DNA of 64,000 bases, from contig OZ296652.1 in the NCBI GenBank assembly GCA_965655095.1, positions 2,232,001 to 2,296,000 on the forward strand. The letters run 5' to 3'. A program made the position numbers and the translations under genes. Below, in pieces: positions 1 through 51,699 of the stretch. Below the pieces are notes generated by a model. The model searched no databases and had not been told where the DNA came from. It worked only from the letters and a program-made list of their open reading frames with translations. Source of the DNA: Haplodiscus bocki (lineage: Eukaryota). Position 1 is the first letter of the stretch. Each line of letters starts with the position of its first letter.

Positions 1-2400
1 ACCGTTTACCTTTACTACGGCAAGTTCGCGAACTCTAATACAAATTGAATTGTTGTTGATTTTTCTGAGAAGAGGAGTCCAATTGTGGACATTGGAAGAA
101 TACTGGACCCAGGTGGGAGTGTTGACGGGTCATTCTGCGGGCACCGCTGACTTCAATTGGAGTTCGAGCTATATTTCTGTAAGTATATGAGCATATTTTT
201 GTTATGGTCATAAATGGGTAATGGTGCCGTAGTTTGTCCATGGGTTAGGAGTATGTCGGGGTGTGTATTATATGTAGTGTCAGAAGTGGTCAGGAATTTT
301 TGCATTTGACATGGGGGAGTAAGGTGTAAATTCGTGAGTGGGTATTTTGGCTTTATGTTAGTTGTGATGTTTCAGGGATTGTTGCATCATCTGTTCGTGG
401 AGCTAGTGAAACATGTGTCGTCTGTCATTGCTCGTGAAGGGGCATATTCAATTGAGTTCTCTGTGGGTTCTCATCGCAGGACATTGAGTGTTGGGTTTTG
501 GGAGGTCAAGCGTTTCGTGTGTATGCCCATGTTGCATTGCGGAAGGGATGTTCCAGCCACAAAGAGTTTTATTGATCTGGTTTCTCGATTGCTCAGTGAC
601 GTTTCTGGTGATGCAACAATGGTCTGTTGTTGCGGGTCAAATTCCAATTTTGTGAAAGTCTTGTATAAAAGTCCTGGTCGGAAGGCGGGTGTTCAGTACC
701 CTTTTGCGTTGGCTCCTGTGCAGTTTGAGCGTTTGCTACACAAACCCAGCTTCAGCGTAATGGGGAGAATTACTATGTGTTCCATGCTGCGTGCTCTTCT
801 ACTGCGTCTGAATGGACTCCTTGATGAACGCTGGGTTCAGTCGACACAGTATTTCAGAATGGTACGTATTGGTAATATTTCCTTGTGGTTGCCCTGGTAG
901 TACAGCAGTGGAATGATATTTTTTCGTTTTACAGGCGCTAAACAATGGAAAGTTAGAGTTGTCCACTGCATTTCTTGTAGTTCAGGAAACGATCGCGCAT
1001 TGGCCTCAAATTGTCACTTACATCAGCAAAACCAGTCAATGTCAAGAGTTTCAGCATGTGGAAGGAAGGGTGAGTATATTTGGCATTTGGTTGGAAATGA
1101 GTTATCACGTGTTGATGGATTGGTATTTTAGGGTCAAGCATTTGATAGTCAAATCACTGGGGATCCCTATTTCGAAGCTCGTCTGGAACTGTTTAAAGTC
1201 ATTGTTCAAGACTATCGTGAAGCCTTCAAGCGGTCAACGGTGCCCAATCGTGACCAAGGGTTTTTATTTTGCGGCCAAATGTGCGATTTTTTGCATCATC
1301 TGCTGCGAAGAATTGTGTCGCCGAGTTGTTTACCTGCTGAGTGGGATTGGGATGCGTTGCAATCTTTTGACTTTGCTGTTGGTGAGCTATTGGGCATCCC
1401 TGAGTTTATGCAGAAGACGGACTTTCGTGCAAAGGTGTTGAAGGTTGCAGGATCAAAAATTGATGTAGAACGTGAGCGTGGAAAGAAGGGAAAATCTGAT
1501 GCTGTTGCGAAGACGGTGATGGGAGAGTCGTTTAATCCCTTCATTGACCAAGGTAGACAATACATCAAATATGTGGCCAAGGAGTTGGTGAGACACCCTA
1601 CGTTCAAATCAGACTTGGTTATTGGTTTAGCTTGCTTCGACTATTCAGTATTGTTCAAATTGCCAAAGACTGTTGCTGTTGATTGTTACCAGCACTTGTT
1701 CCAGAGTTTCAGTTCACAGGGTTGGGTTGCACGAGAGTTGCGGAACGTCCACATTGATGATCACTTAGCATTTATAGACGATGTGCGACATGTGTATCTA
1801 GATGAAGTGGGCGTTGGGCCAGATGTTGAGGATATGGTTTCTTTTCTGTCATCATGCCCCGAATTGTCACGTAGAGAGTATACTTGGGATTTATTCAAAT
1901 TGTGTTGTCTTTGTTTGGGACATGTTGCCCCTAAATTGCGTGATGTTTCGCTTGGGTCGAGCAAGGTTGGAGTGACCAGAGTTAACCTGTCCTCATTCGT
2001 AGAGCCAATACAGGGATATTTGCTGAGTAGTGATGCTAAAGGAAACTTCTTAACTGATCCGGCGTCTATTAAGTCTTGCATGGAGTTGCTTGAGACTTTT
2101 AGTGATAGTGCGCTTCAATGTGATTACAATCCTTGGGAATCGGTCAATGTTCATGGGTACGAGAAGATTCGGGCTTAGGTGGAGAAGTCGTATAAGGCTG
2201 TAAGAGTTGCGAGTGATGTAGAGTCTTCTTCATCTTTGAGCGAGCCAGTATTTGTGTCGGAAAGGTTCCCCGAGCAACGTCGTCGTCCTGCACAGCGTCC
2301 ACGTATTGACATTAGTAAAACTCATCATAGTGGTGTTGCTGAGTTGCTGGCTGGGAAATTGCGATCAAATCGCAAAACTTCTAATGCAGAGTCGTCTTGA
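1..2400 (+). pseudogene. Spliced antisense cargo gene of G1, hAT-transposase-like and apparently catalytically dead. Exons <1-178, 233-318, 376-861, 935-1069, 1132-2400
   Basis: Introns 179-232 (GTAAGT..GTAG), 319-375 (GTAAGG..TTTCAG), 862-934 (GTACGT..TTTTACAG) and 1070-1131 (GTGAGT..TTTTAG) join ORFs 334-900, 959-1441 and 1240-2400 into one frame. In-frame stops: TGA 46, 148, 307 and TAG 2176. Motifs ERW, HWPQIVTYI, KELVRHPTFKSDLVIGLACFD and WDLFKLCCLCLGH resemble hAT-family blocks. Confidence 0.75.
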
Positions 2401-2580
2401 GTTTTAATTAAAGTTGTTGTACTATGCTTTGTTAATCAATCTTCTGTTGCTTTGTTGAAGCTTTTGATAATTTATAGTCCCCAAAAAGAAAAAAAAAGAT
2501 TTAAATGACGTGCGTGCAGAAAATAGAATTAAAGAATAGAAATGGCACACGAAAGGGGCTAGAATAAAGTTTTACACACA

Positions 2581-5500
2581 TCAATATCTGTATATTTCTG
2601 AGTAGTTAGGAATGGGATTGGGCGTCAGTTGTATTTGCCGCCTCTAGAGTAATTAGATTCCTTTTTTGGGAATATTTTCAGCTGTAGGATTGTTGCTGTC
2701 AAGCGTTGAAGAAGTGTCACTCTGCGTTGATGGTGGCTGTGTGACAGGTGTACATGTAATTTCAGCGTCGGTGATTGACTCATATATGTGTTTGGCATTA
2801 TCATTTTGAGTTAGGTCGGTAGTGGTTTCAATGTCCTGACTTTGACCATTCAATTTAAGCTTTGGAGTTTGTGGTACAGGTGGGTCAGAAATGGGGCATG
2901 TTTCCCTGTTTTGATCATTTCTTGAATCATGAAATTAGGAACGTGGGACAAAAACAGTATCTGGTCCCTGTGTATGACTATCATCAAAATCAATTGCGTT
3001 AGGGTCAGTGTATATGATAGGAATATCAAATAGGTGTCCACCAATTTCCGCTTCCCATGCAATTGTGTATAGATCATCTTGTGGAACCACGATATTATCG
3101 TCAACCTGCCATTGAGTTTCCTGATAGTTGTCTTCAGGAGGTTTTTCAGGGTTGTATTTTCGGAGGCGAATTCTGGGTAGGATTTGACTTTTGTTTGTAT
3201 TAAGTTTCCGCACAATGTAATTATTGTTCGGTAAAACTTTTTCTACTAAATAGGGTCTAATCCAAGGGAAGTGACGGAACGGCATTTTTGACCCTTGGTG
3301 GTCCGCTTTTGGCTGAAGTACAAAGCAGTAACCTTTTTTTTAAAGGTGAAGCTTTTGCTTTTTTGTAGTAATACTTCTTGTATTTGATATATGACTGCAT
3401 GACGTTTTCCTTGGTTTTGTTGTAAAGGATTTTGGTTCTTCGCGGTAATTCTTCTGCAAAATCTGTAGTTGGTGCGGTATTGGGATTAAAACATAAGCCA
3501 AGTTTGTGATCTAGAATGTTAAGTGGGACTCGGCCAAGGACTACTCGGCTTGGTTCACAATCGATACTGGTATGGTATGTCGTGTTGTAATTCAGGATTG
3601 CAATTTGTAAATATTTGTGCCATTGTTTCCTGTATTCGCCTGATGCCATTTTCAAAGAAGTCTTGATTGTGGCGTGGGCCCGTTCTAGGACCCCAATGGT
3701 TTGTGCATGTTTTGTTGTGGCTTGTTTTAAATTTATGCCCATTATTTCGGCTACCTCGTGTATAACTTGGGAGACGAAAACGCTTCCTTTGTCTGTTATA
3801 ATGAGTGTAGGTAAGTAGGCGTGTCTTGTCATGATGTCTATTATGACTTTCGCTGTGCTCACTGCCGTGGGGTTGGAAACTGGGTGGCAAATGCATATCT
3901 CTAAAATACATCTATTGCCGTAATGATATTCTCATAACCCCCACTTGGCGGCAATTCAGGCAATAAGTCGATTTGCATGAAGTCTTCCGGTCCAAGAACC
4001 CATTTTGGGATGTGGATTAATTCTGCAGTGATTCGTGTGTTGCTTATGCGTTTGTCTTGAATGCATATTTCGCAGTCACGAACCCAGTTTCTAACAAAAG
4101 TTGCAATTGAAGGAAAGTAATACTTCTGACGGATTTCTTGCATCATTTTTGAAAAACCTGGGTGTTTGCCAGCTGTTCCATGTAATGATTGTGATAACAC
4201 TTTGAGTAATTGTCCGGGCAAAAGGACCTGTAAGTGACTGACTCCACCAATGTCGTTATAGTACTGTCGATAGAGGATGTCATCTTTGATGATAATACGC
4301 TTTTTGTTTCTGGAATAATGCATGTACCGTGCATCATTTAATAAAATTTGTTCTTCAATTGGTAATCCTAACATTTCTCGTTTGAAATTGAGTAGTGTTG
4401 GATCTGAATCTTGTTCAATGAGTGTGCGTGATGATTTTGTTAATTGTGCTATGTTCACAATTGTTGTGTCTTTGTGTAGGTCATTTACGTAGTAACACGA
4501 CACTGTGATGACTGGTGGATCGTTAGGTATGGCGTTTCGAGCTTCTTCTTTACGCTTCCAGAGTTCTTTTTCTGTGGTCTCTTGTTGGTCTGTAGGATCG
4601 AAAAAGACCGTTTCTTCTTGTGCCTGTGGATTCAATGTTCACTACAATCGGTTTTGTTGGAATGTCTTCTCTAAATTTTAAGATTATTTTTTCGTTGGGG
4701 TCCATTTCTAATCGAGATAAGAAATCTGCTGCTGTGTTCATTTTTCCCGGAATGTGTGCAATAGTAAAATTAAATTGTAGTACAAAATCACAGGCATTCC
4801 ATAGAGGTGGAGGAATCATTTTTGTTTGGAAGAATCTAGCGACCGATTTGCTATCTGTCATGATAATCACTGATTTGGTGGCGCCCCAAAATAAATGTCC
4901 AAATTCTTTGAAGGCCATGTAAATGGCTAAAAAATCTTTTGCGTAAATGGACATTTTGATTTGGGATGGTGAGTAAGTTTTTGAGCCATAAGCTCTGGGA
5001 GCGTAAGTTTTGCGTATTGAGGTGTATTTCTGGTTGGGATCATCTTCTATTGGCACTGCATAGCCAGCTGCTTGAAAGCTTGCATCGGTCATGAGGAGCA
5101 GTTGTTTACCAGGTAATGGTTGACGTAATGCCAGCTGGCAACATCGGTCGAGAGCTTCGTTTATTTCCCTGAACTCTTTCTTGATGTCAGAGGTAATCGG
5201 AATTTTGGTTTTGGCATCAGTTGTTTTGAGTAGTTGGAAGAACGGTGTGAGTGGTTCCGCCAGTCTAGGTATGTAATTTTGGTAATAATTCAAAAAACAA
5301 TATTTCGTTGAAGTGCTTTTTGGATCGTGGAAATTTGACTTTTTCGAGGAATTTGGCAATCTTTAGTTTTTGGGGGGCAACCCCGTTGGTTGTTTTTGTT
5401 CGTCCAAGGAAGTCTATTTCTTGTACTCCGAAATGGCATTTGGCCATGCTGAGTTTGAGACCAGCTTTCCGTAGACACTGGAAAAGTGGTTGTAGATTGT

Positions 5501-7756
5501 TGATCAATTATTCCGGGGTATTGACGGCTATGCTATTATCGTCGACATATTGTGCGCATTGGTCGGCTTTGATGACTGGATCGAGTTATTCGCGTATGAG
5601 GCTCGAGAATGCCGATAGGGAACGGCTAAGTCCTTGTGCCAATCTTCGGTACGCGAATGTTCTACTTGCAAAGTTGAATGCAAGGAGTTCGATTGATTGC
5701 TGCTCAGCCATCTGAAGGCAGTGATATGACTGGGAACAATCAAGTTTGCAGAACAAGTTTTTCCCAGCCATATGCTGTGCTGCATCCGTTAGTGTGCTGA
5801 CCGGATGATTGTTGTTGATGTAATCATCTGCGATAAGTGTATTAATTCTGCGGAGGTCAACCAATAGGCGTAGTTTCTCATTTGGTTTCCTTTGTCGGAG
5901 TAATGGACTAGCATATTTGATGGAGGGTAATGTTGTGATGATTCCTTACTTTTGTAAAAGGGCTAGTTCCACGAGGATGTCGTCCTCGAGGTTGATCGGC
6001 GCAGGAAGGCTTTGACTATAAGCAGGCCTGTTGTCTAACGCTGTGAGTTGTACTTCGAACTCTGTATCGATTCCGATGTCAAAGCGGTGCCGTGCAAAAA
6101 TGTCGTGAAATTCCACAAGTAGGTTTTCAACGGCTTTTTTGGCTTCCGATTGTAGAGTAGAATCTGTCCAATCGAAATTGGATAGAAATTGGTTTCGAGA
6201 GTTGGTATTTTCTAATGGATTTATTTTTTCTAATTGTTCTAGTTCCCGCAGTTCATTGAGAATACGTGTCTGAATGGGCGTGTGTTCCTTCTCATTGCCC
6301 GGATTTTGTGGTGTTGGGAACCAGTAAGTCTCGTTGACTTCGTCATTTTTCGATGTTTTCAGAAGGCTGTTATGCAATGAATAGCGTCGTCATGACTGTT
6401 GTCCAGAAGGTGCCTCACTGAGGTAGGATTGACTGGTTGAATGTGTTTTGTTTGTTCAGGAGTTAATATTGAGAAATTTGCAATGTGCGTTCCTTTCTTT
6501 AGGGTGTAAGGGTGGTCCAGAAAATTGCTAATTTGGACCATATGTTTGTTGTTTTGGGTTGATGAAAGTGCTGGACAGATGATAAGATCTTCGTCGTTCT
6601 CTAGAAGTGGCGAGGGTTGAAGTATTCCTGTCGCTTCGCTATCTGTGTAGATCTGTGACTTTACCCAAATTGTGGTCCTTTTTCCCGGTTGTAGTGTGGT
6701 TTCTACTGGGTTTAGTATAGGTTCAATGACATTTGGGTATGTCCGGTTTTCCTTTTTCAATTGCATTGAAAAGAAGGAAAAGTTCAGGATTCCTTGACGC
6801 ATATCGAGTATGGTACTGTTTCCTTGTAGGAATAAGAGACCGATCAAAAGGCTTGTGAGATTTGTCATAATTATGAATTTTTCTCTGAATGTAATGTCAC
6901 CGACTTCGAATTGCATTTCTACTGTTGCAAGAGGTGCTTCTAACTGTCCATTGGCGACCATAATTTGGAACTCAGGTGCTGGACCTTCATTTAATTCTGT
7001 ATGTGGAGCCAGTAATCGAATTTTACGTAAGTCGGCTTCCGAAATAGCGCTTGAAAAAGCACCCGTATCTATGAGCCCGTCAATATTTAACTCCCCGAAA
7101 TCCATTGGAAAGGAAAACATTTTTCGCTTATTCTTTAATGGCAAATTTGTTGAAAGCTGGAGAAACCTTGTGAGTCCGTCTGGTGTTACCTGGAGCTGTG
7201 GTAAAATTTGGTCGTCAATGACTGCTGTGTGCCTTTGTTGATTTTTTGGTCTCGGTCGAAAGTTTGGTAATGCTGATGTATCAGGTAAATGTGGATTGAC
7301 TGTCCACAAATCTATCAATGCATGTCGTAATGCGTTTAATACATGTGCATCCGTAATTAAGTCATCATATTCGATCTGGTCATTAGGTTTATTGTAAGTA
7401 TCTTTGTACTCCAACTTGTCTTGGTCATGTAATTCTTCAACCCAATAGGGGTCAAATCCATATTGAGGGTCAACGAAGAATGCGTCGTATGCAACGAATT
7501 CTGGAAGTGATCTAAATTGAAGGTCAAAGTTGTGTGTGTAGTCGTATTTGTATGTTGGGAAAATTTTATGGGTTATGTGGATATTATTATATCTTCGAAT
7601 GTAGGCTTTTTCCATTTGCTGCTGCCAAACAACTGATGGAATTCCTGTGTTCGACGTTTGATGAGAGTAGTACACTATGGTGGGTGGGTCAGATATAACG
7701 TATTGTCTCACTGATGTGTAATCTGCCCATTGGATTCGTGACTTTTTTAGTTTAAA
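2581..7756 (-). pseudogene. pol: Gypsy pol polyprotein (protease, RT, RNase H, integrase), frameshifted
   Basis: Protease LIDTGA (ORF 6359-7711). RT motifs VDLRRIN, KLDCSQSY, QGL and QYVDD near 5545. RNase H TDASF and ADFLSR. Integrase H..H/CEIC, QIDLL, TDKGSVF and ERAHATIK. Ends ...PNYSEIYRY-stop at 2581. Confidence 0.95.
7750..7756 (-). promoter_or_regulatory. -1 programmed ribosomal frameshift slippery heptamer U UUA AAC at the gag-pol junction
   Basis: gag ends TCT TTA AAC TAA. The -1 frame from 7756 reads TTT AAA CTA AAA AAG TCA CGA... with no stop into pol ORF 6359-7711. Confidence 0.85.
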
Positions 7757-8889
7757 GAGTTTTTAGGAATTGATGAAGGTCCTGAATGGGTTAAGTTTCC
7801 TTGTTTTTGCCCGTCATTTCGATTTTCTGGGTGATATTCTTGTTTGAACCGCTTGGGTCTATTTGCTGCGTTGGGACCGCTCCAACACCTTTTTGGAGGG
7901 TGGTTTTTCCGTTGACAAGGAGGACAAGGTGGAAATGATTTGGATGTCGAAGGTTTTATGTTTTGATTTGGAGGATCATTTCTTTGTTCTTGTTCCTTTC
8001 TCATCCTTTTACGACAATCTCGGAAAACGTGGCCTGGTTTTTTACAATATTGGCATGTCACTTTTGTTTGTTCAGTGTTTTGTTGGTTTTCATTTGGGGG
8101 TACGGCTGTCATTGTGGGTAATGTTAATTCCCCATCATTTTTTAAACCACTGAGTTCTAATTCTCTTTGGAGATGTGCAACTACTTGGTCGTATGTGCCA
8201 TTTTCCAGATAGGCTAAATTGAGTGATCGTTTCAAATGAGGTGGCAGTTTCGCGTAGAGTAGATTGTCAATCATGTGCTGGGCGTTGTCACCGAACTCTC
8301 TTTCGGCACATTCGTTGAGTTCTTCTAAGAAATCGGGAAGTGAGTTCGTGTTAGGAGCGAATGTGAGTTTGTGCCATTTGTGTTTAGCTGTATCTTGAGA
8401 TTCTGGTTTAACATATTTGCGTCGAAACACATTTAGGACGTCATCGAGAGTTTTCTTATTTAATGCACTTATGTTTCTGAATGTTTGAAATGCTTCTTTT
8501 CGTAAATGGCCGTGAAAATGGTTATTTTTCAAAGCTTCTGTCATCTCCAGTTGCATTTTGAGCATTGTGTGAAATGGGTCTTCAAAGAGTTCGAATTTCT
8601 CATTTTTGCCATCGAAAATTAGTGTATTTGTGGACACGGGTTTGAGCATTGTGGCTGCTTGTGGTCGTTGTTGGGTTGCAATTCCAGCAATTGCATCAAC
8701 TAGGCGGTTAAAGGAATTGTTTGTGTCTGAGTTTTGATTTCTTGGTGTTTGTTCAACCACTGGTAAATTGTTGTCTTGTCTTGTAATACTTGTGTTGACA
8801 GGTTCTGATATTGATGTGATCGTGGGTTGCGTGGTGTTACAATGCGTCCTGTAAGGAACTCGGGGAATTGATTTGGTTGGGCTGTTTGT

Positions 8890-9039
8890 CCTGTCACCAT
8901 GTGATGATTGGGGTTACTAGGTCCTGTCACCGTCTGATGATTGGGGTTACTAGGTCCTGTCACCATGTGATGATTGGGGTTACTAGGTCCTGTCACCATC
9001 TGATGATTGGGGTTACTAGGTCTTGTCACCATGTGATGA
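8890..9039 (-). repeat. 33-bp coding tandem repeat in gag, about 4.5 copies (VTGPSNPNHHM)
   Basis: Unit CCTGTCACCATGTGATGATTGGGGTTACTAGGT on the + strand. Confidence 0.95.
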
Positions 9040-9599
9040 GTTTGTGGTTGCCGGTTAAAACGTGTTTCCGGGACCGACAATTCACTTACTTCGTCCGGAA
9101 TAACGTGTCGAGTCTCATCATTTACATTTGATACACCTAGTGTATTGTCGTTTCCAGATGCGTTTTCGAAAGTGGCATTAATCCCCACATGTTCCCTACG
9201 TTTTGAACCTGCAGACGCACTGGTCGTATCCCGTCCAGAAGATGCATTTATTGACCTGATTGCTAATTCAATTTTAGGAGTAACAATAATATCAGTAGTG
9301 GTCAAAATTGCATTCTGTATCCTATCTTCAACTGTATCAACAGTATTACTTATTTCTCTGTCAATCCTCTCATTAAAACACCTTTCCAAAGTTTCCACAC
9401 TCATTGCATTTCCATTAACAATTGAATCATTACTAGGAGTAGCAACGGTAAAATCTCAGTCATTAGCGCCTTCATTGACCAAAGAATATTCTTGTCTCTT
9501 ACTGGCGGCGTTGCCAATGATCATATCTCGATCGAAGTCATCTAATTGGCTAAGAAGCCTTTTGTTTGACTGTCTTTTCTTACGAGTGGAAACCATGTT

Positions 9600-10790
9600 T
9601 GTTTTAATAACTGAATTGCATTAAGAGTGGAACAATAATAATAACGTAAAAGTGAATGATGATTTAAACTACCAAACTCGCAAAGAGTTTTAATAACTAC
9701 AAAAGAGATATCAGTTTTGAAATCGTTTAGTGAACTGATTTTTAGGATGACGGTTTTTCTTCTGTTGATGGCTCCTCAGTCAGTTGTGGGTCACTCTTTT
9801 CCTTCGTTCGACTTGTCATTCGTCAACCAATTGGGTGGCACAATCTACTGATGTCATGTTCGCCATTCCATTTTTAATTAACGCATCAAAAGGCTTAACC
9901 CGAGTTTTACATATCGTCATCATGACATCACTTTAAAATTTGTAAAAAAACAAACATCAAAAGGGGGAGTTCCGAATAAATCATGACAATCAAGTTATGG
10001 TTATGGAATCTAGATAAATGTTCAAGGTCAATAAAATCATGTTTACATGCGTAGTAAATGTCATGGGTGGTCGTTTATGGTTATAATATGCTGAATTTGA
10101 CCAGTATGTTGATATTGAACTTCATGCACCGGTTTTAACTTTGATTTAATATAAGGTGGTCAAACGTGGGCACCACGACCGTTTTTCGACCGGGTAATAA
10201 TTTTCACTCAGGATTTAATAGTAACTAGCACTAGGTAATTTTATATTACACAATTAGACAATTATATGTTTATATAAGTACATAGCAACATCTTTTAATT
10301 GTATATGGTCATACTTCAGTTTTCTGATTTCATTTGGCCGTACTTCAACTTTTGTTTAAAACCAACCACTCGCGTTGAGCAAAGTGGTCAAATTTAGGTC
10401 CTTGTGACCAATTTTGACCACGCTCCAGCAGCGCTTTTGCTTGGTCAGGGTTCTGACAAGAATACTTGTTTTGACCAATCAAATTTAAGTATAAGACTGC
10501 AAGTTAATTGAGCACTTCAAACATTTGTTTATATCCGTTCTCTCATGATACAAGCTTCTTTGCTATTTGTATGGATTTTGCACATAAATACGTATTTATT
10601 CGTAGGATCATATACGTATATATATTAGCAAATAAATATATAAATATATATCTTCAAAATGGGGGGATATTTATCCAGCGAGTTATTTAACGAGGGTTTT
10701 ATTAGTTTAGTCTTCAAATAAGGGCAGAGTATATCCCTGTGTGCCCGAGTTTTGTCCATTAAGGTTAACGGAGTAGACTAGGCCGTCACA
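9600..10790 (-). other. 5' LTR plus leader region of G1; internal LTR boundary not resolved
   Basis: Non-coding region upstream of gag. TG-start at 10790, minus-strand AATAAA at 10698-10703 and a TA-rich tract at 10610-10650. No second LTR in the window for confirmation. Confidence 0.5.
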
Positions 10791-11960
10791 GGCGGCAGCC
10801 TGCGACAGTTACCTTTGACAGGTTGCTTAAAGTGTCCTCTGGTTGAGACGTCCCTGTTGTTGAAAGTCAAATGGTGCTGTTTACAAAAATTTCTGGGATC
10901 GGTATCACGGAAAATTGATTTCTTGCCTTATGGAAGATTCAATGTCTATATAAGTAAAACTTCTGGTAAATTTATCTTTCAGTAGATTTGGTGTTCCTTA
11001 CACGTACGACATCCATTGTTTCCAGCGTGAGAGAATATAGAAAAAACCAATTTACAGTGTGATGGACGGGATCGATTTGTTTGCTTTGTAGAAGTTTCTG
11101 TTCCCTCGATTTGAAGACTGTATGGATTCGAAATGGACGCAAACTATCCGCTGTTTGCGCAGAATTTGTCGATTTGTAGTTGGCAGTAGATTTACTTATA
11201 CATCTGATGTTGAGGGGTATTTTGTTAAAAAACGGTCAAGAACAAACTTTGGAAGTAACGAAATTGCATTTGGTGATGCAAGAAATTTAGCCAGCAGTAG
11301 CGAAGTATCTACGGGTGCATTGATTCCAGATGTCAAAAACAAAAAACCGAGAACATAAAAGGCCGCGTTAATCTTTCAAATGGGAAGTGGTGAATTTACC
11401 GACAACAAATGGACTTTTAACTAGGTGTTGTTTCAGCTTCAAGCTGTTCTTTTGCACTTTCCCGGATGTTCTAAGTTTTTGTCACGACTACAGTTGTTTC
11501 CAACGTTTTTGCAGAATTACTAGCAGAGTTTTGGCACGTGTTTTTTTGGTCGGCGAGATCAAAGCCACTTGTTTGGTCGAGCTTCGAATTTCTGCCGGAA
11601 GTGCTCCGCAGAAAAAGTACGAGCTCAAGTTAACCGAGTGAGGATTGTTGGGGTGAAATTCTTTGAATTTACTTGTCTTTCGTAACCTGTTGTCGAAGAT
11701 TTGAGGTCAAAAACAAATTTGACCTACAATTGTTCGTGTGGCTAATGGCTAATGCAATCATGGTTGTGGAGAGTTCGAAGAAGAAACTTGCGTCCAAGTT
11801 TCGACGGCTATTCTTGTGAATGAATCTTTAACTACTAAATTGGAATCTGCTCAGAATTTTGTCAATTTCGTGTGTTTTGGACTTTTTTCTGACAGTTTTT
11901 GGTGAGTGGATTCAACAGAAGACGTTGCAAAATTTGACTATTCAGTGTCTTCCGACTTAT
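10791..11960 (+). pseudogene. Decayed homologue of the antisense hAT-like gene in G2; 5' part cut off by G1
   Basis: YISKTS at 10947-10964 matches G1 YISKTS at 1019-1036. ORF 11387-11641 region EVVNLPTTNGLLTRCCFSF..P..DYSCFQRF aligns with G1 ELVRHPTFKSDLVIGLACF..P..CYQHLFQSF. Same position relative to pol as in G1. Confidence 0.65.
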
Positions 11961-12049
11961 GGAAAAAACCATTTGCATCAAAGTATTTTTGTTTATTCAA
12001 TATTGCCACTGACTTGAGTGGTGTGGCGAATGTGTTGAGAATTGTTCAC

Positions 12050-15000
12050 AATGAATAACATCGGGAGTTTGCCTACGATTTCCGTAACTGTTAGGTTGAT
12101 CACGATAGTAGATGACAAGAGTCAGTCGACATGATTGCTTTCTCGTGTCGTTTACCAAAATTATGCCGCCAAGCGAAGACGATGTCGATGTTTGGCCTCA
12201 ATTGTTTATTTACTCGTGCGCAATGTACAGTTTGGTTCGACGGTTTTTCGTCCTGGAGCTCTTGCGTCTTAAAAATTTGAGCCGCTGCAAAAGTAATTTT
12301 CTGATGTGGCATCGAAACTGATATTCCAACTGACCCCAGTTTCTTTAGGGAAGGCCTTGATTTGCTGGATCTTTTTGCTGGCACGTGCTACTCAGTGGCT
12401 ACCATGCTTGATGTTACATTGATATTCCTGGTATAAACTGAAAGATTTGATCTTTGTCTGGGAAAGATTTCAACCGACCTCAAAACCTGATCAGTTGAAC
12501 CTGAGGTTCAGTGCACCCACTTCCTCCAGTACACAAACCCAATGCAAAATCAACCTCCTCGAACTGATTCAATGAAAGTTTGTTCTTTGCTCCAGAAGTG
12601 AGTGAGTGTGATCGAATAAATTGAGAAGCGTAAATCTATCTCACAATCAGTATTTTATCGAATAAATTCGACTGTTGTATTCAATTTTGAAGGAGCTATG
12701 ATTTTGTTTGATCACTGAAGCGTGAAGTGGGCAATATAAGTTTTTTGTATTGTTCATTATGAAGACTTTTTCACGTTCACGAAAAAAGTCCGGAAGTGCC
12801 GCGGTAGTACATGACTATTTGACACTTGTTCTGTACCTTTTTATGAAGTTCGGGGTGGTGTTTTGACTCAGATTGTTTTCACTACCCCATAATAAAGCAT
12901 TCGCTACGTTGATGCTTTGGCTTTTCTCTCCTAATAGTTTTCGTTTTCTCATTTGCTGTAAAGTTGCAAGGTGTTCATTTTGGTTTTATCTTCTAAAGAT
13001 TGTGTTGCTCTTTTAAAGAGTGTAACTCATCGGTAAAATACGCAGTCGGAGCCAAGTTTGAGTGCAAGTCGTTGTCGAATATTTTGTGAGGTATTCATCC
13101 CTGGAAATTTCGATTCGGTTAGCACCCGATACTAGTTTTACACGTTGTGCCGTTGTTCAAAAAAGCTGCTGCTAGAGATTCATGCCATCGTCTTCCCTGA
13201 AGCGTTCCTCGTGGAATGTGTTCTGTCAAAGGCACCAAAAGCTTGCGCATGTTTCGTTGCTGCATAAGTACTGTGACGCTCAAGGCTTCGGCTGCTTCGT
13301 GTTTCACGTGTGCAACAAAGACTGAGCCTTTGTCGGTTGTCAATATTGTTTGCAGGTAGGCATGTCATTTCACGACTTCCGTTATGATTTTGACGGTTTT
13401 GACAGCTGTAGCAGTGGATACTGAGTTGGCAAAGTGTTATCAAGGAATTAAACCAATAGCATTATTGATGCTTCCATATTCGCTTTTTCGTGGTTGTTTT
13501 GGTTAAAAGTTGATCTGCGTAAATGTTTCTGGACCCAGCTCCCATTTGGGTATGCTGAGGTGTTCAGATGTGATCTTTATGAATTGTCACTTTGCTTGTT
13601 TTGAACGCAAAGACGACATTATCGGACCCATTTGTGCGCAATTGATTGGAATAAGTATTTTTGCTTGGGTTCATGCCACAAACAGACTTCTGAGTGTTTT
13701 CCTGGACACCATGTTATGGCTTTAGTTTGTTTTTCCTTAATTGTAAAGGAAGCAGAAATTGAAGGTGTTTAATTCGGCCAAAAACGTTGTATTATGGCCT
13801 GTACAAAATATCTTCTTCGATATGGTTTCTTTTTTTGATTCTGCATTAGTGATTGTGTATGGAACTTGTTAGAATTAGTTCGACTGAAAGCAATATAGGC
13901 ATTATTTGCCTGGAGTTGAAAAATACCGGATCCGAATTTTGTTCTTTTGTTATACGAGATGTTTTATCGAACTGCTCCACGCTGTGCTCTCTGGTGCGTT
14001 TTCAGTTTGATATTTCTGTATCAGTGTGACAGGGTTTTTACTGGAGGTCCTCTTTTTGACTTGGTTCGTATCTCGAACTTTTGTTGTCACGCTTTGTCTT
14101 CTGACACCAATTGCGCATCACCATTGTTAGACAAGACTCGGTCTTCTCCTGCTTTTTCAGTTGATTGAAAACCGAGTCCTGTTGATTTTCTAGGCATATT
14201 TTGATACGTTTTGGTGATATTCATCTCATTTGGTTCATTTCTAGACGGAACAGAGAAACAGCTGCGCTGTTCATCTTTCCTGGACTGTATGCTCTAGTGA
14301 TGTTTAACTTGAGACAACTTGATGTACGTTACACAGGGCAAAAATTTTGAATTGAAAAAATTGCTTTACTAAATTATTGTCCGTCATGATGATGATGATT
14401 GGTTTCCGTACGCCGTAGAAAAGTTTGTTCAACTTTTTGTTTATGCCATGTTTGTTGAGAAAAAGTGTTTTGCACGAATAAGCAATTTTGTTCCCGAATT
14501 GTTGAATGTTATGGACTGAATTTGGACTGGTGCTCTGCTTTTACGTGTTGGCGTAATTTTTTGGCCGCAAAAAGCTTCCGTATCCACAGCTTTCACTGCC
14601 ATTTGAAAACTTGCGCCTGTCGTCAATGAGAATTGTTTGTTTGATACGGGTTGTCCATGCACTAGATGAGAGCAATTGTGTAAGAATTTGCCGAGTTGAT
14701 GAAATTCATACGTGAATTGGTCATTGCTTTGAGTAGTTTTGAGGAGTCGACAGAACGGATTTTGTCCTTTTGCCAATTGCGGCTTTCAATTTTGGTGGTA
14801 ATTGAGGAAATCGAATAAACATTGAAGTTTTCTTTGATGCATACAAACTTGATTTTTTCGAGGAAGTTGGTGTTTTCTGGCATCTTAAGAGGACTTGTTC
14901 CTCTTGGTGCAATTATACTTCCAAACAAAAAAATCTGGGTAGCATTTTGACAATGCTTGTTTTATTCCAGCAACTTGATTTCAAGTGAATACCGCTCAAA

Positions 15001-16960
15001 GATTGTTGAGTTATTGTACTGGTGAATTGGCGGCACGACCGATATCCTCGAGGTTTTGTCAACATTGATTTGTTTTATTGACAGGGTTCAATTATTCGCA
15101 CAAAAAACTTGAAATTGCTGGGAGAGAACTGGTTGGACTTTTTGCTAGTCGCCTGTTGGCAAATGATCTGCTGGCAAAGTTGAATGCAAGCATTTCTACT
15201 ATTTCTTGGGTCACCATTTGAAAGAAGAAGTGATACGCTTGAGCTTGAAGACAATCACATTGGCGAATTGAACTTTCCCTTGGCACAAACTGTATGTCCT
15301 CAGTAAGTGTGTTGACTGGCTGTTTGTTCTTTATTGTTGATTTTGCTTCCCGTAACTTTTTGGACCTACATGTTTCCTAAATCGAAGTGTGATAATTATG
15401 CCAATTTTTTGTATAGTACTAATTCCACAGTGACGTATTCTTCTAAACTGAGTGGCGTGGATAGGTTTTGACTACAGGCAGAATTTTCATGAAATAGTGT
15501 TAGTTTCACTTTGAAAGCGATGTTGCTTCGAACGTCAAATCTATGCTCTGTGAAACTATCGTGGATTTTCATGAGTGCCTAGGAGGTGACGTATCAGTGC
15601 TGGGTTGATGGGATCCTTATATCTCGCTGGTGTATGTGGTGTATGGGTAGAAATTCAAAAAATAGCCCGTGACATCTCTTTTTAAATGGTGTTCCAAAAT
15701 TTTGTTGATGATGACTGTGTATTAGGTTATTCGAGTGGTGTTTAAAGCTGGTCAAAGGATGAGGTCATTTTTGTCTTTCATTTAGTGAAAGTCTGGATTA
15801 TCCACGTTCTTTAGTTGTCTTGGTAAGTCAGTAACTTCATATAGAATACTTTTTGTTTTCCCGGTTGGTTGAGGTTATCTTTCAGGTTTACTGAATTTTA
15901 AAAGTTCATTGATAAGGAAGTATGTACTGTCTTCGTGTTTGAGTACCTTGGAAAATAGTTTGATGTAGAGTTTTCCCTGACGCAAATTTAAGCATGTACT
16001 GATTTTTGTAAGTAAAGCAACCCTATTAGCGGGTTTGTTTAATTGCTCAAGACTCTGAAAGGTTCCCTGCACGTGTTTTTTTCAAAATTTGAATTTACAT
16101 TCAACTGTGTAAACTGGCGTTCCTTAATGCCAGTTCGCTACAAATATTTACATTTCTGGGGGCGGTCCTCCATTCAAAACTTTTGGCGGTGCTAGTAGTT
16201 GATTTGACGTTATTCAGCTTCTAGAATGGGATATTTTGGAGTACATGCATCAATGAATTCATCAAGTGTTAACGTTCCGATAAGCATCGGAAAATACAAC
16301 AATCTCCATTGTTTGTCATATGGAGGGTTGCCATTATGTATAAGATTTCCGTGTTTTCTCCTTCGATTTTTCGGTGATGACGGATGGTTCTTGCGTCGGA
16401 GACTGGTTTTTGATACTGTTTGAAAAGACGTGGATGTCTGAAATTTGTTAGTTATGAAGTTTGTGGCAAATGTGAGCGAACTTTCTGCAAATCAATCAAG
16501 ATTTTCCTTAGTTCATCAAATACCTGTGAGTTGTTATTTCTATGGCCTTCCGCAACTAGTTTGGGCGGTTCGTCTTATATATGTTTGAAAATGATGTTTT
16601 CTGTATAACCAAACTCCGTGCCAAAATTACTAATCCATTCTGTGGATCAGAGAATTATGGTTTAGTGTAAGCATTTTCTTTTAATGGCAAGGAATGTGCG
16701 GAAATTTTTTGTTCAACTAATGCTTGTGTGTTAGAAAAATTTTGGTTGAAGGTTTTTTCATGTGTCGTGGTGAGTAAGTTGTTTCCAGATACTGCTCGTA
16801 GACAACATAAAGGACACCAATAAACAGTTTTTGACAAGTACGGGAGAAAGTTCTAGTAGTGTCTTATTTCACGTATTGTGTTTCAAGTTTAAGATCTGAC
16901 CAATGGAGTCGTGGTGTGTTCAATTTATAGTATAAGGATTCTTGACAATGAATGTCGTGG
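12050..16960 (-). pseudogene. pol: G2 pol remnant
   Basis: ORF fragments 13119-13343, 14441-14776, 14662-14928 and 15092-15286 are homologous to G1 pol. Confidence 0.85.
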
Positions 16961-16969
16961 CTTTTGATT

Positions 16970-18410
16970 TCTAGTTTTCCTCTCAATTTTGTTTGTCGAT
17001 TGCATGAAGTGGTCCATCTCACAACATTCAGGTGTATTGGTTTCAATTGCGCCCTTCCAATACAATTCAGCTGCATGGTTGATATTTAGTCAACGATGGT
17101 AAGCTGGTTGTTTTTCACACATTGTTTCATCGGATTTCTTTTATTCACTCTGTTGCTCTTGTTTTCCCGGCATTCTTTGATGTTTGTTTGTTCTTTGTTT
17201 CTTTCAATTAATGCAAGTTTTCCAAAATTCTATGGTTTCTGGTTGATTTGGCATTGCTATTGTTGTTGCCTTTCTAGGGATTGGCAATTCTCCGTGTAAT
17301 TCCAATCTTCTGATTTTGAGTTCCAGTTCTCAGTTCGCATTTTCCTTTCACAGGCTCCGTCTTCAAAATCAACACGACTTCTTGACCCTTTGAAGGTCTG
17401 CAAGCAGTTTGGCATACAGCAATCTGTTTATCATGCTGGCCAACAGGTCCAATCGCTCATTAAGCACATGCATTCAGTTCAGCGAAAATTGCCCGCTAGC
17501 GTTTTGGTATGCGGTTCAAAAGTCAGATTGTGTCAACCATATATTGTTGTGGCTGAGGATTGTTGTTTGACGAACTTTCGTCTTCAAACGTGCACTTATT
17601 AAAGGCTTTTTTGTTTCAGAAATATGGCAAGGCCTCTTTTCTTAAAAGTCGAGGGAAAAATAATTAACTTCACTGAAACTGTCATCTCAGGTTGCAGTTT
17701 GGGCATAGTTTGCACCAATTCTTCAAAAATTTCAACTTTTGTTTTCACTATCAAACTGGTGCTGACGGTGTCTGAAGTTGTTGCTCGGACGTTACGTTAG
17801 CAAGTCTCTTGATCGAATATCCTCAACCTAAAATTTGTCTCTGGGATGTTCCTTCGACATTTCTGAATGTAATTTCGGGTGAAGCATGTGTCGCTATTTC
17901 TTGCAATTTTCAAGAGTGCTGTGAAAAAGGGTTGCTCTCAAAAGCTGATATTCTTCTGCCGAAATCAATAATTTCGCTTTCTGGAGTGCTATACGCGGCT
18001 GGAGTTTGCAGGTCATAAGTAAACCTCCGTGCCGGAAAAATGTTGGCCTCGATCTTTTTGTTATTCAGAGTCCTGTCGTTTCCGCTATGATTGATATTTA
18101 TGTCCTTGCGGCTGTATGCCGTCATGAGTGGAGTATCTTCACTGTTTCCATGGAAGTCTCTTCGGTCAAGATTTCAATCCATGCTGTTTGTGGACCTCAT
18201 CCTGATAACCCAATGGTCAATCTCACAACCAAACTATCCAACGCCATCAAATCGGGTCGTGTACATGACTTTCGACAGCAGCAACAAGAACATCCATCTC
18301 TTTCCTTACTCTGTCGCTAATATAAACGTCTGTGACAGCAGTTTGTTTTTAACTGTTTTTGCCAGGCGTTGCAATTCTGTAACGTTCCACGAAGTCTTCC
18401 ATGTCAGCTT
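16970..18410 (-). pseudogene. gag: G2 gag remnant
   Basis: Fragments align to G1 gag: TVSTSL..EIFEELVQTM..EMT, LRKEAL and ILMALDSLV. Confidence 0.7.
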
Positions 18411-34713: not shown

Positions 34714-35136
34714 AGGACTTTGTTTGAAAAAAGTATAGTGTTCATGTGTGTAATTTTGTTTCCAATTAGAAAAATGTTTCAATAATATCACAAACCTTTT
34801 CCAAACTAGTCATATATGTGTGATATAAAAACAGTTCTGGGTTTTGTAACACTTTTTAGTGGCCGCCATTTTTTGCATATATAGAGTCCATACCGACAAA
34901 AAAGTGGGACAGAAGAGTGTATACAACGTTAAATATGCTTGCCAAACAGAGTACAAAGTTTTTTGTTTGATCGGTGATTCCTATTATCTATTCGATCAAG
35001 ATGTGTGTAGTTTCTAAATGCTCTTGATGTTATGGGAGAATAGGATGCGAAAAGTTTATCAGTGGCTTTAGGTATGGCATTTGCTTCAAAAATCAAGATG
35101 TTTCCTCTGCAAATCTCACAGCAGAAAAATACAACA

Positions 35137-35780
35137 TTTCAGAGGTGGAGAAGAGGTCAATCCCCAGTTTATCTTACACCCCAAAGCCTTCGGGTCTACT
35201 GAGCATTTTCATTCTCCTTGTAAAAAACGGTTCAGACAAAAGTGCTTCCATAAATCCATCAAGAAGTTCTTTATAGTCGTAACCCTCGCAGTGCAAAACC
35301 CCCTTGTCTCCGGAGAGAACTCCCACGAAGTTGTTGCAAATGTAAGATTTGTGCGCATATAGTCCTTTTGAATTGTACACTTGCAGACTATTGATGAACA
35401 CTTGAGTATTGGAAAAAATTCAGTGCTAATTGTTGTTCCCATGATTGACTAGAGCAACTGGAGCTTTTTCCAATTCCATCATTGCTTCATCCCTTTTTGC
35501 CTCTTTTTTGTGCTCCTTTCTAACGTCTTTGTTGTTGTAGGTTTCGTAACCACGACTTTTGACAATTTCCGTTTTCAAAGCCTAGTGAAACTCCCTCAAA
35601 TCAACGTAAAGGTTCCGATCTGGTTGAATTTTGAACTCTATACGGTTTTCATCAAGTGATGTTGTAGGATAAACTTCTTGCTTATGAGACCACAAGACAT
35701 TGTCAACTAAAGTGAGTTTCCTTTCAAGGTTTCCACAAACTGCCACAAAAGTTTGGCACCGAAAACTTTTTGACATGAAT
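35137..35780 (-). pseudogene. Major capsid protein (hexon-like double jelly-roll), N-terminal remnant, element B
   Basis: YPTTSLDENRIEF...YVDL, YNSKGLYAHKSYI and LHCEGYDY. Position between core and protease matches element A. Confidence 0.75.
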
Positions 35781-35799
35781 AACGAGAAATGTTTGTAAA

Positions 35800-36130
35800 A
35801 AAATAACTAAGTGACCGACTTGCTTGTTGGGTAGATTTTGTTGGAATGATTCCCTATTCCTACCACTACTACCCAACTGTTGTTTCAAAATTTCCCTTCC
35901 TATACTCTTCTCTGCACTCTTGAACGTTTTTCTACCACTAACAACCTCTGCAATTTCTGGCGCAGCAAATTCCAACAAGTCAGCAACTACGCCTCTTGCA
36001 GCTGGGAAGAAATATTTTTACGGGAAAATGGAATTGCGGTCCTCTCAATACCTGGTGCAAGTGCACCGAATCACCGTGCAAGTTGTCGACAATTACCTGT
36101 ATAGAATGGCATCTCGACTTGTCGTGAAGT
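35800..36130 (-). pseudogene. Small basic core-like protein remnant, element B
   Basis: EFAAPEIAEVVSGRKTFKSAEKSIGR. Lies between penton and hexon as in Mavericks. Homologue at 52470-52800. Confidence 0.5.
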
Positions 36131-36149
36131 AACCATCTTTTAACGTCTT

Positions 36150-36950
36150 TTAGGTTAGAAATGAATTTTGGAGGCTTTTCCGAAAAACAAAAAAAGACGA
36201 GTGATACCGACAGATACAAAGGGTGTTTTTCACCGCTTGTGTCTCTGAAGTCACTGTGAATCCAATGAAAAAAATATTTTGAGCAGCAGCCTGAATTGCA
36301 GGTTGCTAAATGTCTGACAGTTCATGTACTACTGATTCGTTATAATGTCTCCAGAATTCAGCTTCGAATTGAAACGAAAGCAACACAGCAATGAAACCTT
36401 CGTGTCGCCAACGATATTGTACTCAATCAGGTCCGTGTATATCTTGAGAGAGTGTAGGCGGACAATGTCGTAAGCAAATTCTGGTTTGTGAGGTCCTTTT
36501 CTTCTCAACATTACTCCAAATTCAGTACGAATGTTACTTCTGGAAATGTGTCCCAGATCCGTACTAAAAAAAGCAAGACCAGATCCTTCTATTTGGAGGT
36601 AAATCTAAACTTTTTGTCTTCTTCGAGACAACTTTAACTGTTATACAAATTTCGCTGTGATTGTGTCTTTCTTGAATGAGAGTGTTCATGGGTTCAACGG
36701 TATCCGTAAAGGAAGCGTAAATACCAGGTTCCAGATAGTAGAATTCTGACGACTTTGAAAACTTCCTGTGGAAAACCATGATTTTTTCTCCGTCACATTT
36801 TATAACATTGATGGGTAGGGTTTTTCTGATATTGCAAAACCTCCGTGACCTTCCAGATTCAGTTGCTTTGATAAAAACTTCGTTAAAGAGCTCAGTGTAT
36901 TGTCTGGAAAGAGTTACGAAGATGCATTTGAAACCAACTCTATTGTGCAC
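36150..36950 (-). pseudogene. Minor capsid protein (penton) remnant, element B
   Basis: YYLEPGIYAS and SLKIYTDLIEYNIVGDTKVSLL, a typical Polinton penton motif. Confidence 0.75.
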
Positions 36951-36974
36951 GGTTCTAGTGTTAAAAGATTTTGA

Positions 36975-37850
36975 TCAACTCTTTGCGATAAAATTTACCG
37001 CGGTTAATCTCATACTGTTCAGCTTTTTTGTGTATGCTGGAGGTTTCCTGGAAGAAATTGCAACGTTTTTGAAAACTTCTTCTGTAAATTGTGGCTTACA
37101 ACAATTCCTGAAGTGTATGTCATGTTTCGCGATGCGAACTCTGTCTCTAAATTTGAAAACGGGATTTCTATATTCTCTTAGTGGCTTGCTGTACAGAACG
37201 GACAAGAAGTCGCAATTCTTGATAGTCTCTGGTATCAAGTTTAACAAACCATTTTTTTGGAATTCAGGGTTGTGACAAAGTGAGAAACTTTGTGAATTTA
37301 CTGGTATGCATAGTCTTCCATGTAAGGGTTAAAAACAATTTTCAGGGATGGTGTTGTACGTTCAGCAAATGCAGCCCTGGTCTCACTCATTGTAGGGTAA
37401 TTTTGTCTTCTTTCAGCGCAGTGTTTTGAACGCTCCAGCAAATTCTTTTCCCTCATCAACCCAAAGCTTTTCAGGTTGATTCTTTTGTGTGATCATAATC
37501 AAAAATGCACGAGCAGTTTCCTTGGAACCTTTTGTTTTCATTCTTTTTGCATCTACGGTTCTATCAAACACATCCTGGTGAAATATAAGATATTTTACAA
37601 CGTTAACGATTCTGGCTGGTTTGTCAACGTATGCTCGGTCAATTTACTAAATTTCTTTTTTGAATATCGCAAACGCCTTCATTCTCTTGAATTTACTTGT
37701 GGCAAGAGTAATTTTTCTATAGGAAGTTTCTGGTTGCAAAAATTGTTTCACCTTTGATACTGATAGGTTGCTAGATTTCACTAAAATGTGCATACAGCCA
37801 AAGCAGCACCAACCTGCGTGTAAAATCTTTGCAGCTTCTGACGTACATTT
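36975..37850 (-). pseudogene. Polinton integrase remnant, element B
   Basis: FYTQVGAA N-terminus, WVDEGKEFAG, AAFAERT and FKFRDRVRIAK...PQFTEEVF. Confidence 0.8.
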
Positions 37851-38529
37851 TTTGAAACGGACCCAACTTCTTCTCTCTTTGGCTGCGCATTTTGATTCAG
37901 AACCAGAGTTTGGGATAAACCAGCAGCGTCAAGTAAAGTAAAGCAAAAATCTGGAACGTCTGCATTCTGCGTTTTTACGACAAAGTTTTTGAACAAAGTT
38001 TGACAAAAAAACTTCAGTTTCCAAACCATCCAAAAACAAAGTCTGAAAATTTAAGAGCTTGATACGAGCACAAGTCAAATTTTCGTCAAACAAAAGATCT
38101 ACTTTGGCAAACAGCTTCTTGGTTATTTCCTTCTTAAGCGAATCACTTTGGTAAGTGGTAAATTGTGAAGGTTGAAACTTTGGAAGTTACTGCATTTTGA
38201 CTGAGTGGGTATTCAAACTCTGGTTGTATACAGAAACAGGAACGAGAACAAATTGCTCCATGTCAAGACAAATGGTTAAGGACGGGAGGAGCAATGACTT
38301 TTATGAGTTGCAGCCGCATTTCGATTGCCAGAACGTCTCTTCTTTGCTTACAATTGATTCTTTCCAGAAAGAGCAATCGAACTTCGTTTTGAAGTTTTGT
38401 CAAGTGATGTCTTTTTTTGCTTCGCAGGTTTCCTTTGAGAAGATTTACTATACATTCGCACAAGAACCTCAAAAACTCTTTTGGGCAAGACTGAAGGAAA
38501 AAACTTTTTCATTTGTGGGAAAATGATTG

Positions 38530-39200
38530 GAACACTTGCAGAGTAGAGAAAATTTGTGTTTTCATTGTCCAAATTTTTCGACTGTTTCAGCTAGTCCGGG
38601 ATATGAAAATTTGAGGGAATGGATCCGGTGTTTGTCCAGTAACGTAATTGATCATCTGCGTGTGGCAACAAGTCAATCAATAAATGACCTAAAGGAACAG
38701 ATGTTGCGTGTCAATACCAGTCGACTAACTCTGATCTGAGTCCCAATTTTGCACTAAGCGACTTGCATCACATCACGGAGAGACTTGAACAGAACAGTGC
38801 GCCTGTTCTGGAGATCAACGTCTCGCCTAAGTTTGCTTTGATGAAGCAAGTTGTGCTTAATATAAATAGTACTCGATCGACAATGTCTGCCAGCAGTAGC
38901 AAAATAAACAAATGCTTTAGAGTTGCAAATCTCTTCACATGAATTGTCGAAGATTAACAAGTATTTTGTACCGTTGTTTTTGAACGAACCTAAAAATTTC
39001 AAATTTTAGACTTTGAACAAAGTGGAGATTTTCATTTTATTTTTGCATAAAATAATAAAGTGGCTTGGAGTGTTGATAAAAAAAGTAAGTTTTTTCAAAT
39101 TTTGGTTAAAAGGTTCCATTTTCGAGCCAGTTGTAAGTAAATTGCGACTTTCCCATCTCGAAGGGACCTACCAATGATTTAAAGACGCCATTTTTTTGTA
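38530..39200 (-). pseudogene. FtsK/HerA-type DNA packaging ATPase remnant, element B
   Basis: Walker A-like LVGPFEMGKSQ near 39150, Walker B LLIFDNS and ATAGRH. Confidence 0.8.
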
Positions 39201-39549
39201 AAAATTACCTTTTTAATAGTCTTGGTGAGGGTAAAATCTAAACCGCTGCACTACACAGAATTCTCACCCAAACAGTAGATTCGTCACAAATTTTTGAAAA
39301 ATGACTGTTCCAAAAGCAACCAAAGATAGTCAAAATCACAAAAAATTTGGACAAACACTATAAAACATAAGGAACAGTTTTGTCCCAAACCGGCCCACGG
39401 TTTTCTCTCTTGATTGTTGTCGTCAAAGACTTTTTTACATAAATTATTATCTTCTTCTTGATCAGTCAAGTCTCTTGTAGGCTCAAAGTTAAAATATTGA
39501 ACCTCGAAGAAAAAATTGAATCATTTTAAGAGCATTAATTTCGTAGATA

Positions 39550-40030
39550 ATGACAATACAATTCTTATTACAAACTTTACAACAATATATGCCGCTTTAT
39601 CCAGTAACCAAACAATTTCGCCTTGCGCTCTGCTCAGCGAAGTGTCCTCCTGTGTCTGAATGGGTAACTAAAGCTAATTCAAATTTCTTCATCAACCAGA
39701 TCTTGAACTTTGGGACAGTCATGATTTTCCAAAGTTTCCACACATTTATCGAATAAATTACCAAGAGTTTTGCATCTTTTTGTTCATTTTGCAAAGTATT
39801 CACCCTTAACAGCTCCAAAAAGAATGAATGCGAGCTCACTGTAATCCAATTGTCCACTGCTCCATACATTTCCGTGCAAGTTTCTTGTACACCAGAACGC
39901 TTGTTTTGTGGATTTGAAGTTTTTTGGAGGACAAATTGAGTATCCCTGAAGTTTGCCATCCCACATCCTTTTTAATGATTTCATCTGCCAGCTCAATGTC
40001 TAGTACAATACATGAGATACTTCTTCAAAG
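39550..40030 (-). pseudogene. DEDD/DnaQ-like exonuclease remnant, element B
   Basis: CIVLDIELAD...WCTRNLHGNVWSSG. Homologue at 49000-49410. Confidence 0.55.
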
Positions 40031-51690: not shown

Positions 51691-51699
51691 TTTTTTACC

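Follow-up and report, generated by a model that had tools for sequence, protein, structure and literature searches.

The first 2,400 nucleotides of the window, the 64,000-nucleotide stretch of the Haplodiscus bocki genome analysed here, hold a plus-strand, intron-bearing gene that converges on the pol gene of a minus-strand Gypsy element. This raises the question of whether a retrotransposon can carry such a gene as its own, and what the gene would do for it. The element is 16,007 bp long, and the window begins within it. Along the minus strand its Pfam domains run gag, protease, RT, RNase H, integrase, the Ty3/Gypsy order. Together with paired TG...CA LTRs, a TGG-starting primer site immediately behind the 5' LTR and a 5-bp target duplication with one mismatch, this identifies a Ty3/Gypsy LTR retrotransposon. 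A preliminary description of this DNA had placed the LTR end at 10790, where 10807 is correct, and had seen no LTR copy between pol and the gene, which we confirm. The antisense gene is inside the element because the LTR partner was found upstream of the window. The convergent arrangement reported earlier also stands, with the gene's stop codon at 2398-2400, the pol match ending at 2584 and 180 nt between the two stops. In 36 of the 41 copies, the window copy counted, both gene and pol are enclosed by an LTR pair; the target duplication of these 36 is exact in 26, has one mismatch in three and more mismatches in four, the ends of the other three being unread.

Table 1. Features of the window copy and its surroundings. 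Plain numbers are window positions; L031 coordinates refer to the locus of the window copy including sequence upstream of the window.
Feature	Position	Strand	Remarks
Exon 1, ~640 codons	start L031:8250, 3' end in window 1..178	+	acidic low-complexity N-terminus; C-x2-C...H-x5-H finger
Exon 1, premature stop at codon 248	L031:8991-8993		window copy
Intron A, phase 0 (predicted)	179..375	+	197 nt in window copy; 119-226 nt in most other copies
Exon 2, 162 codons	376..861	+	486 nt in 35/41 copies; predicted RNase H-like alpha/beta domain
Intron B, phase 0 (predicted)	862..934	+	GT and AG in 40/40 other copies
Exon 3, 45 codons	935..1069	+	135 nt in 41/41 copies and 11/12 divergent alleles
Intron C, phase 0 (predicted)	1070..1131	+	GT 38/40, AG 38/40; divergent alleles GT 11/12, AG 12/12
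Exon 4, 422 codons	1132..2400	+	predicted helical; full length in 37/41 copies
Exon 4, premature stop	2176-2178		window copy
Gap between converging stops	2401..2580	+	candidate poly(A) signals ATTAAA 2407-2412, AATAAA 2563-2568
pol (protease, RT, RNase H, integrase)	2581..7810	-	several broken frames in window copy
gag with zinc knuckle	7747..9596	-	broken in window copy; start codon ~565 nt within 5' LTR
5' LTR, 1,776 bp, TG...CA	9032..10807	-	94.8% identical to 3' LTR
3' LTR	L031:4801-6581		3.4-5.2 kb upstream of window
ORF3, second accessory ORF, sense, ~227 aa	L031:6582-7508	-	acidic, proline-rich, C-x2-C near C-terminus
Older element, antisense gene, decayed exons 2 and 4	10954..12208	+	tblastn 28-45% identity
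Older element, exon 1 remnant	L031:4198-4743		
Older element, decayed pol and gag	13023..17766	-	29-42% aa identity

The gene is longer and has fewer introns than first described. Four GT-AG introns of compatible phase had been proposed, at 179-232, 319-375, 862-934 and 1070-1131. All four GT-AG pairs are present, but the gene model built on them is not borne out: the 86-nt piece at 233-318 has a stop in every one of its three frames, and the window part contains 25 stops under the four-intron model against two under a three-intron model (the premature 2176-2178 and the terminal stop). These frame stops rule out the four-intron model and any conserved cassette exon within 179-375. The first two introns, with the piece between them, are replaced by a single intron A, while introns B and C were correctly placed. 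Only 15 of 40 other copies show AG at the 232 acceptor, and a few cases may be alignment-edge shifts. The window part of the gene is likewise real, but the full gene is about twice as long, exon 1 having been overlooked: the corrected gene has its ATG ~1,750 bases (~1.75 kb) upstream of the window, encodes ~1,270 aa and has three predicted introns. The window copy carries two premature stops overall. Among 40 other copies, chosen by exon 4 alone, 12 have an uninterrupted three-intron frame (1,268-1,272 aa) from start codon to stop together with the full set of six splice dinucleotides, and gag, pol and the antisense gene are all open together in five.

Intron lengths vary freely between copies. 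Among members of the close family, GT and AG words outside the splice sites are in many cases conserved just as well, so the splice-dinucleotide count there proves nothing alone. The preliminary description had staked its model on conserved splice sites, and these are found in wider comparisons. In twelve divergent alleles, whose intron sequences are unrelated, 69 of 72 splice dinucleotides are retained and the codon borders coincide, and in decayed distant families GT or AG stands at the predicted base in 49 of 71 readable exon borders versus a background of ~7%. A profile search returned 1,924 clusters (50% identity) at E 0.001 or better, a protein family that is unannotated. Among the best 150 of these clusters, distant proteins span junction A gap-free in four cases, B in one and C in one; three further rows that span a junction come from close relatives and read through an intron. 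Because intron-less distant proteins read across junction A, the 178|376 join is independently fixed. Contig joints from four runs, whose contigs are of unclear kind, gave no match to the predicted junctions among 15 of the 35 listed. That the antisense gene is real and spliced is nearly certain. On the plus strand of the stop-to-stop gap AATAAA occurs in 38 of 41 copies; within the gene body it occurs 0 times in 11 open copies against 8.7 expected, these copies not being independent.

Three further observations concern the introns. A candidate fourth intron of 118-120 nt lies in the 5' UTR (L031:8064-8182; GTGAGT in 37/40 and AG in 40/40 copies), and similar sites are seen by eye in divergent alleles. 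In one allele group (L152:6416-8443, L153, L155) the lengths of introns B and C are divisible by three and neither intron contains a stop, so that the unspliced sequence forms a frame of 676 codons. In the youngest main group the lengths of all three introns are often divisible by three as well, but there the introns hold stops.

The family comprises 811 DNA and 2,941 protein candidates. Scoring covered 40 of the former and 116 of the latter, and 40 of the 116 scored loci were retrieved at 20 kb each: 15 similar to the window copy and 25 that belong to younger groups. Selection was estimated as Nei-Gojobori dN/dS on the spliced frame in 11 hand-picked pairs, ten diverged and one near-identical. 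The last 190 codons of exon 1 give 0.05-0.09 in ten of the 11 pairs and 0.62 in the near-identical pair, which has too few changes for dN/dS. In the ten diverged pairs the N-terminal 250 codons give 0.30-0.48, exon 2 0.04-0.17, exon 3 0.01-0.10 and exon 4 0.07-0.15, with 0.07-0.12 for the core of exon 4. Across exons 2-4 the spliced frame lies below every other frame; the opposite-strand frame sharing third positions is higher, and the remaining four are mostly ~1 or above. The corresponding values are 0.09-0.14 for pol (four pairs) and, for gag, 0.11-0.29 in diverged pairs and 0.51-0.64 in three near-identical pairs. Purifying selection on the antisense gene is comparable to that on pol, with dN/dS of ~0.1 in the conserved exons.

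LTR identity is 99.5-100% in 17 copies, and the target duplication is exact in 16 of these. Introns B and C are intact in all 17 and intron A in 16, the exception being cut by a deletion. Newly inserted copies retain introns, and the central proposal of the preliminary description is upheld: the element bears an intron-containing, protein-coding antisense gene, located after pol and before the 3' LTR. Under established splicing rules, introns that lie reversed in a genomic RNA escape splicing. The sense genomic RNA would hold the introns of this gene reversed and the spliceosome would be unable to remove them, so that every new copy would inherit them. The gene would then be expressible from integrated DNA only, where an internal promoter would drive it and splicing would yield a separate mRNA.

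Linkage of gene and element was assessed in loci picked by integrase DNA, to avoid selecting on the antisense gene itself. The integrase search gave 39 matches, and 29 non-self loci were examined. The gene adjoins the integrase in all 29 (exon 4 by blastn in 27, by tblastn in two), and the full-length copies lacking it that had been envisaged were not encountered among these loci. Seventeen loci have a window-type allele and 12 have alleles of 50-60% protein identity. Exon 4 DNA is 61% identical between allele groups (50 of 53 copies usable), and the 12 divergent alleles subdivide into groups 60-72% identical, but the integrases on which divergent alleles sit are 92% identical. Alleles have been exchanged between element backbones. 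LTR parts are 71-89% identical to the window copy in divergent-allele copies and type-A copies alike; since the gene alleles come without distinct LTR types, a strict match between protein and LTR target is not seen.

The same arrangement recurs at greater distance. The window element itself interrupts a homologous antisense gene, that of an older, distant Gypsy element. The exon 4 remnant of this older gene, used as a query, found ~40 distant homologues. Twenty were retrieved: one is the main family, and 17 of the 19 others are convergent to a pol. The other two, L174 and L176, show no pol within ~5 kb downstream and may be deleted elements or lie in another context; in L174 the exon 1-2 block is duplicated. 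Distant families share the position and intron sites of the gene. Introns appear to have been gained and lost within the gene family (P0211, P0219, P0243): some distant homologues begin in the exon 4 region after intron-like text, and others are without introns A or C. One distant homologue had no match at E 1e-40 in the Haplodiscus bocki genome, metagenome contigs yielded two near-identical loci without context, and no homologue was present in the viral contigs searched. A search for longer proteins of the family found none, which is weak evidence.

ORF3, the second accessory ORF, starts ~900 bases upstream of the antisense ATG in head-to-head orientation and ends at the polypurine tract. Like the zinc finger and the allele swapping, it is absent from the preliminary description. 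It is frameshifted in the window copy and mosaic between copies, several types being swapped among otherwise near-identical copies, and purifying selection acts on it, with dN/dS of 0.14-0.32 in ten of the 11 pairs and an undefined value in the other. A Pfam search with ORF3 gave no match. A CCAAT word in the gap between the two genes, ~600 nt upstream of the antisense ATG, occurs in 40 of 41 copies, and the layout suggests a two-way internal promoter serving both. One open copy has no hydrophobic or membrane segment in its antisense exons or ORF3 (maximum KD19 1.45), and the antisense protein is not Env because it has no membrane segment. An errantivirus-like env, a sense ORF with signal peptide and membrane anchor, was considered and rejected, there being no hydrophobic segment and no Pfam match.

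The antisense protein resembles hAT transposases in layout, but the resemblance is not backed by significant similarity. The C-x2-C...H-x5-H motif at the end of exon 1 keeps its zinc ligands in ~40 of 44 rows. It matches zf-BED in 7 of 65 rows (best E 0.0028, short of the Pfam cut-off) and, also weakly, Spin-doc; Atlas leads for the finger, at 0.85-0.86, are BED-type fingers. The protein also carries basic clusters. At curated cut-offs no Pfam family passes for the protein, single exons and homologues included, and PDB sequence searches gave no match below E 0.03. Atlas scores for exon 4 stay below 0.9 with mixed families. Structure models have mean pLDDT 42 for the read-through region and 36 for exon 4, which was set aside. 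The exon 2 model has a core of three strands, helix, strand and helix at pLDDT 50-62. Among the matches listed, its residues 265-350 match only eRF1/Pelota, uS11-like, integrase and Prp8 RH domains at Z 5.2-6.6, including eRF1/Dom34/Pelota (Z 6.6, rmsd 2.8, 80 aligned), SIV integrase (Z 5.5, rmsd 3.1, 77 aligned) and Prp8 RH (Z 5.2, rmsd 3.2, 83 aligned). We take all of these to share the RNase H-like fold. The Z values are all below 8 and may reflect no more than a common arrangement, and exon 2 is assigned as an RNase H-like domain with low confidence. In the model strand 1 has a conserved Glu and the strand-4 motif no acidic residue, a placement taken from a low-confidence model, so that the full DDE catalytic triad appears to be absent.

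A BED finger, an RNase H-like domain and a helical C-terminal half make up the layout of hAT transposases, and introns are common in hAT transposase and domesticated genes. The BED-like finger, the predicted RNase H-like domain after it and the long helical part at the end would be features in common with hAT transposases and with domesticated ZBED and Spin-doc/GTF2IRD2 proteins. In contrast to hAT transposases, the antisense protein has no significant profile similarity and no complete DDE, and resides in an LTR element. Comparison by hhalign with hAT transposase ORFs of the Haplodiscus bocki genome gave a probability below 1% with shallow templates, the hAT C-terminal dimerisation domain had no Pfam match, and no hAT transposase is among the best 50 structure matches listed. 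Descent from a hAT transposase is possible, and we hold it with weak to moderate confidence, somewhat short of even odds.

Our preferred reading, with a probability of about 0.6, is that this is an accessory antisense gene of a Gypsy element, expressed as its own spliced mRNA from an internal promoter, whose product would be a nuclear DNA-binding helper acting on the element's DNA and may descend from a dead hAT transposase. That the product is a nucleic-acid-binding helper of the element is quite probable. An activator or anti-silencing role, in which the protein would promote transcription of the element or shield it from silencing, is a tentative assignment on which we would not yet wager. 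The most detailed version is unlikely as a whole: an animal Gypsy clade would have domesticated an intron-containing hAT gene backwards, with loss of catalysis, turned it into an activator or anti-silencing factor with cassette-like alleles, and paired it head-to-head with a second gene under a shared promoter.

The protein might instead serve replication or integration, by tethering the integration complex to chromatin or by nuclear import or export of element RNA. Such a role fits the same conservation data (open frames and dN/dS), as well as the zinc finger and basic clusters, and plant antisense ORF products have been proposed to be retroviral-accessory-like (PMC7264820). A tight fit to one integrase is, however, disfavoured because gene alleles of only 61% DNA identity have been swapped onto integrases that are 92% identical, and we regard this role as rather improbable. 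More doubtful again is a conflict module, in which an arms race against silencing by the host, or rivalry between variants of the element, would keep the alleles diverse, the gene acting as helper, immunity or addiction factor. It would account for the recombination of near-identical backbones with alleles of three or more deep groups, which are 60-72% identical, and for the likewise mosaic ORF3, but selection within and between alleles is strongly purifying, and template switching, which mixes co-packaged retroelement genomes, is enough to produce such mixing. The BED-like finger with an RNase H-like domain, and the introns, could also mark a mere hitchhiker, either a nested DNA transposon or a host gene that was captured. 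That reading is largely refuted, and very improbable, given selection equal to that on pol along retrotransposing lineages, a constant place in all 29 integrase-picked copies and in 17 of the 19 distant homologues, and a beta-4 motif without an acidic residue. Finally, the G/T-rich plus strand favours GT words, but a frame-specific dN/dS of ~0.1, indels confined to introns and intron-less homologues leave hardly any room for an open frame and introns that are by-products of strand composition or antisense RNA and encode no protein.

Read as an antisense accessory gene, the locus extends a known kind to an animal, a conclusion that is well supported. Wnt genes in the genome confirm that the host is an animal. 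The preliminary description rightly pointed to plants as a precedent: plant Ty3/Gypsy elements carry antisense ORFs termed aORF-3R, including maize Grande gene23, rice RIRE2 and the Retand TRP28 ORFs (PMC7264820, PMC11963269). Antisense ORFs of this kind stand at the same place in plant elements and in Boty of Botrytis, with function unknown (PMC7264820, PMC11963269, PMC8365987). Antisense placement and conservation comparable to gag-pol are shared with the gene described here, which differs in its animal host, its ~1,270 aa, its three predicted introns, its head-to-head pairing with a sense ORF and its exchange of deep alleles. The word "intron" does not occur in the available text of PMC11963269, and the antisense protein has no Pfam TRP28 or SMC match. 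Outside plants, brtn has been described in Boty-like Gypsy elements of Botrytis and Sclerotinia (Zhao et al. 2011, via PMC8365987 and PMC7264820). This fungal gene, likened to ours by description only, is likewise an extra gene that lies antisense in the stretch from pol to the 3' LTR. It reportedly contains introns, and is a precedent that the preliminary description overlooked.

Among animals, an annelid survey repeats the description of antisense ORFs without an example in its available text (PMC8220671). Bdelloid rotifer LTR elements have extra sense ORF3s (PMC5408684) and Oikopleura Tor elements an env with an internal promoter (PMC4402516). These animal retroelements, too, have captured accessory genes or use internal promoters, but their ORF3s are of env, DEDDy and GDSL types from spliced or internally started messages, and the available texts describe no antisense multi-exon gene (PMC5408684, PMC4402516). 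HTLV-1 HBZ is antisense too (PMC11963269), but is driven from the 3' LTR (PMC7264820). A literature search covering main texts and few subscription papers found no animal precedent for an antisense multi-exon gene in an LTR element. The gene stands out by its host, its size, the domains of its protein and the exchange of its alleles. What antisense extra genes do for LTR retrotransposons is described as an open question (PMC7264820). As the family is young and has thousands of candidate copies, expression, localisation and DNA binding are directly testable here. If the hAT link is true, a retrotransposon would here have turned a tamed DNA transposase into a regulator of its own. In gene annotation of the Haplodiscus bocki genome, such copies will be mistaken for host genes.

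Some minor features of the window complete the picture. At window 9032-9596 gag opens within the LTR and translates through the primer site; with its start ~565 nt inside the LTR, the 3' LTR consequently duplicates the first 190 gag codons. In-frame 33-bp tandem repeats at 8888-9049, each starting like the primer-binding site, vary in number from copy to copy. Elsewhere in the window, 35135-39959 and 49071-53471 form a long inverted pair of related repeats at 67-80% identity, and tandem arrays lie near 48450-48790 and 62760-63180.
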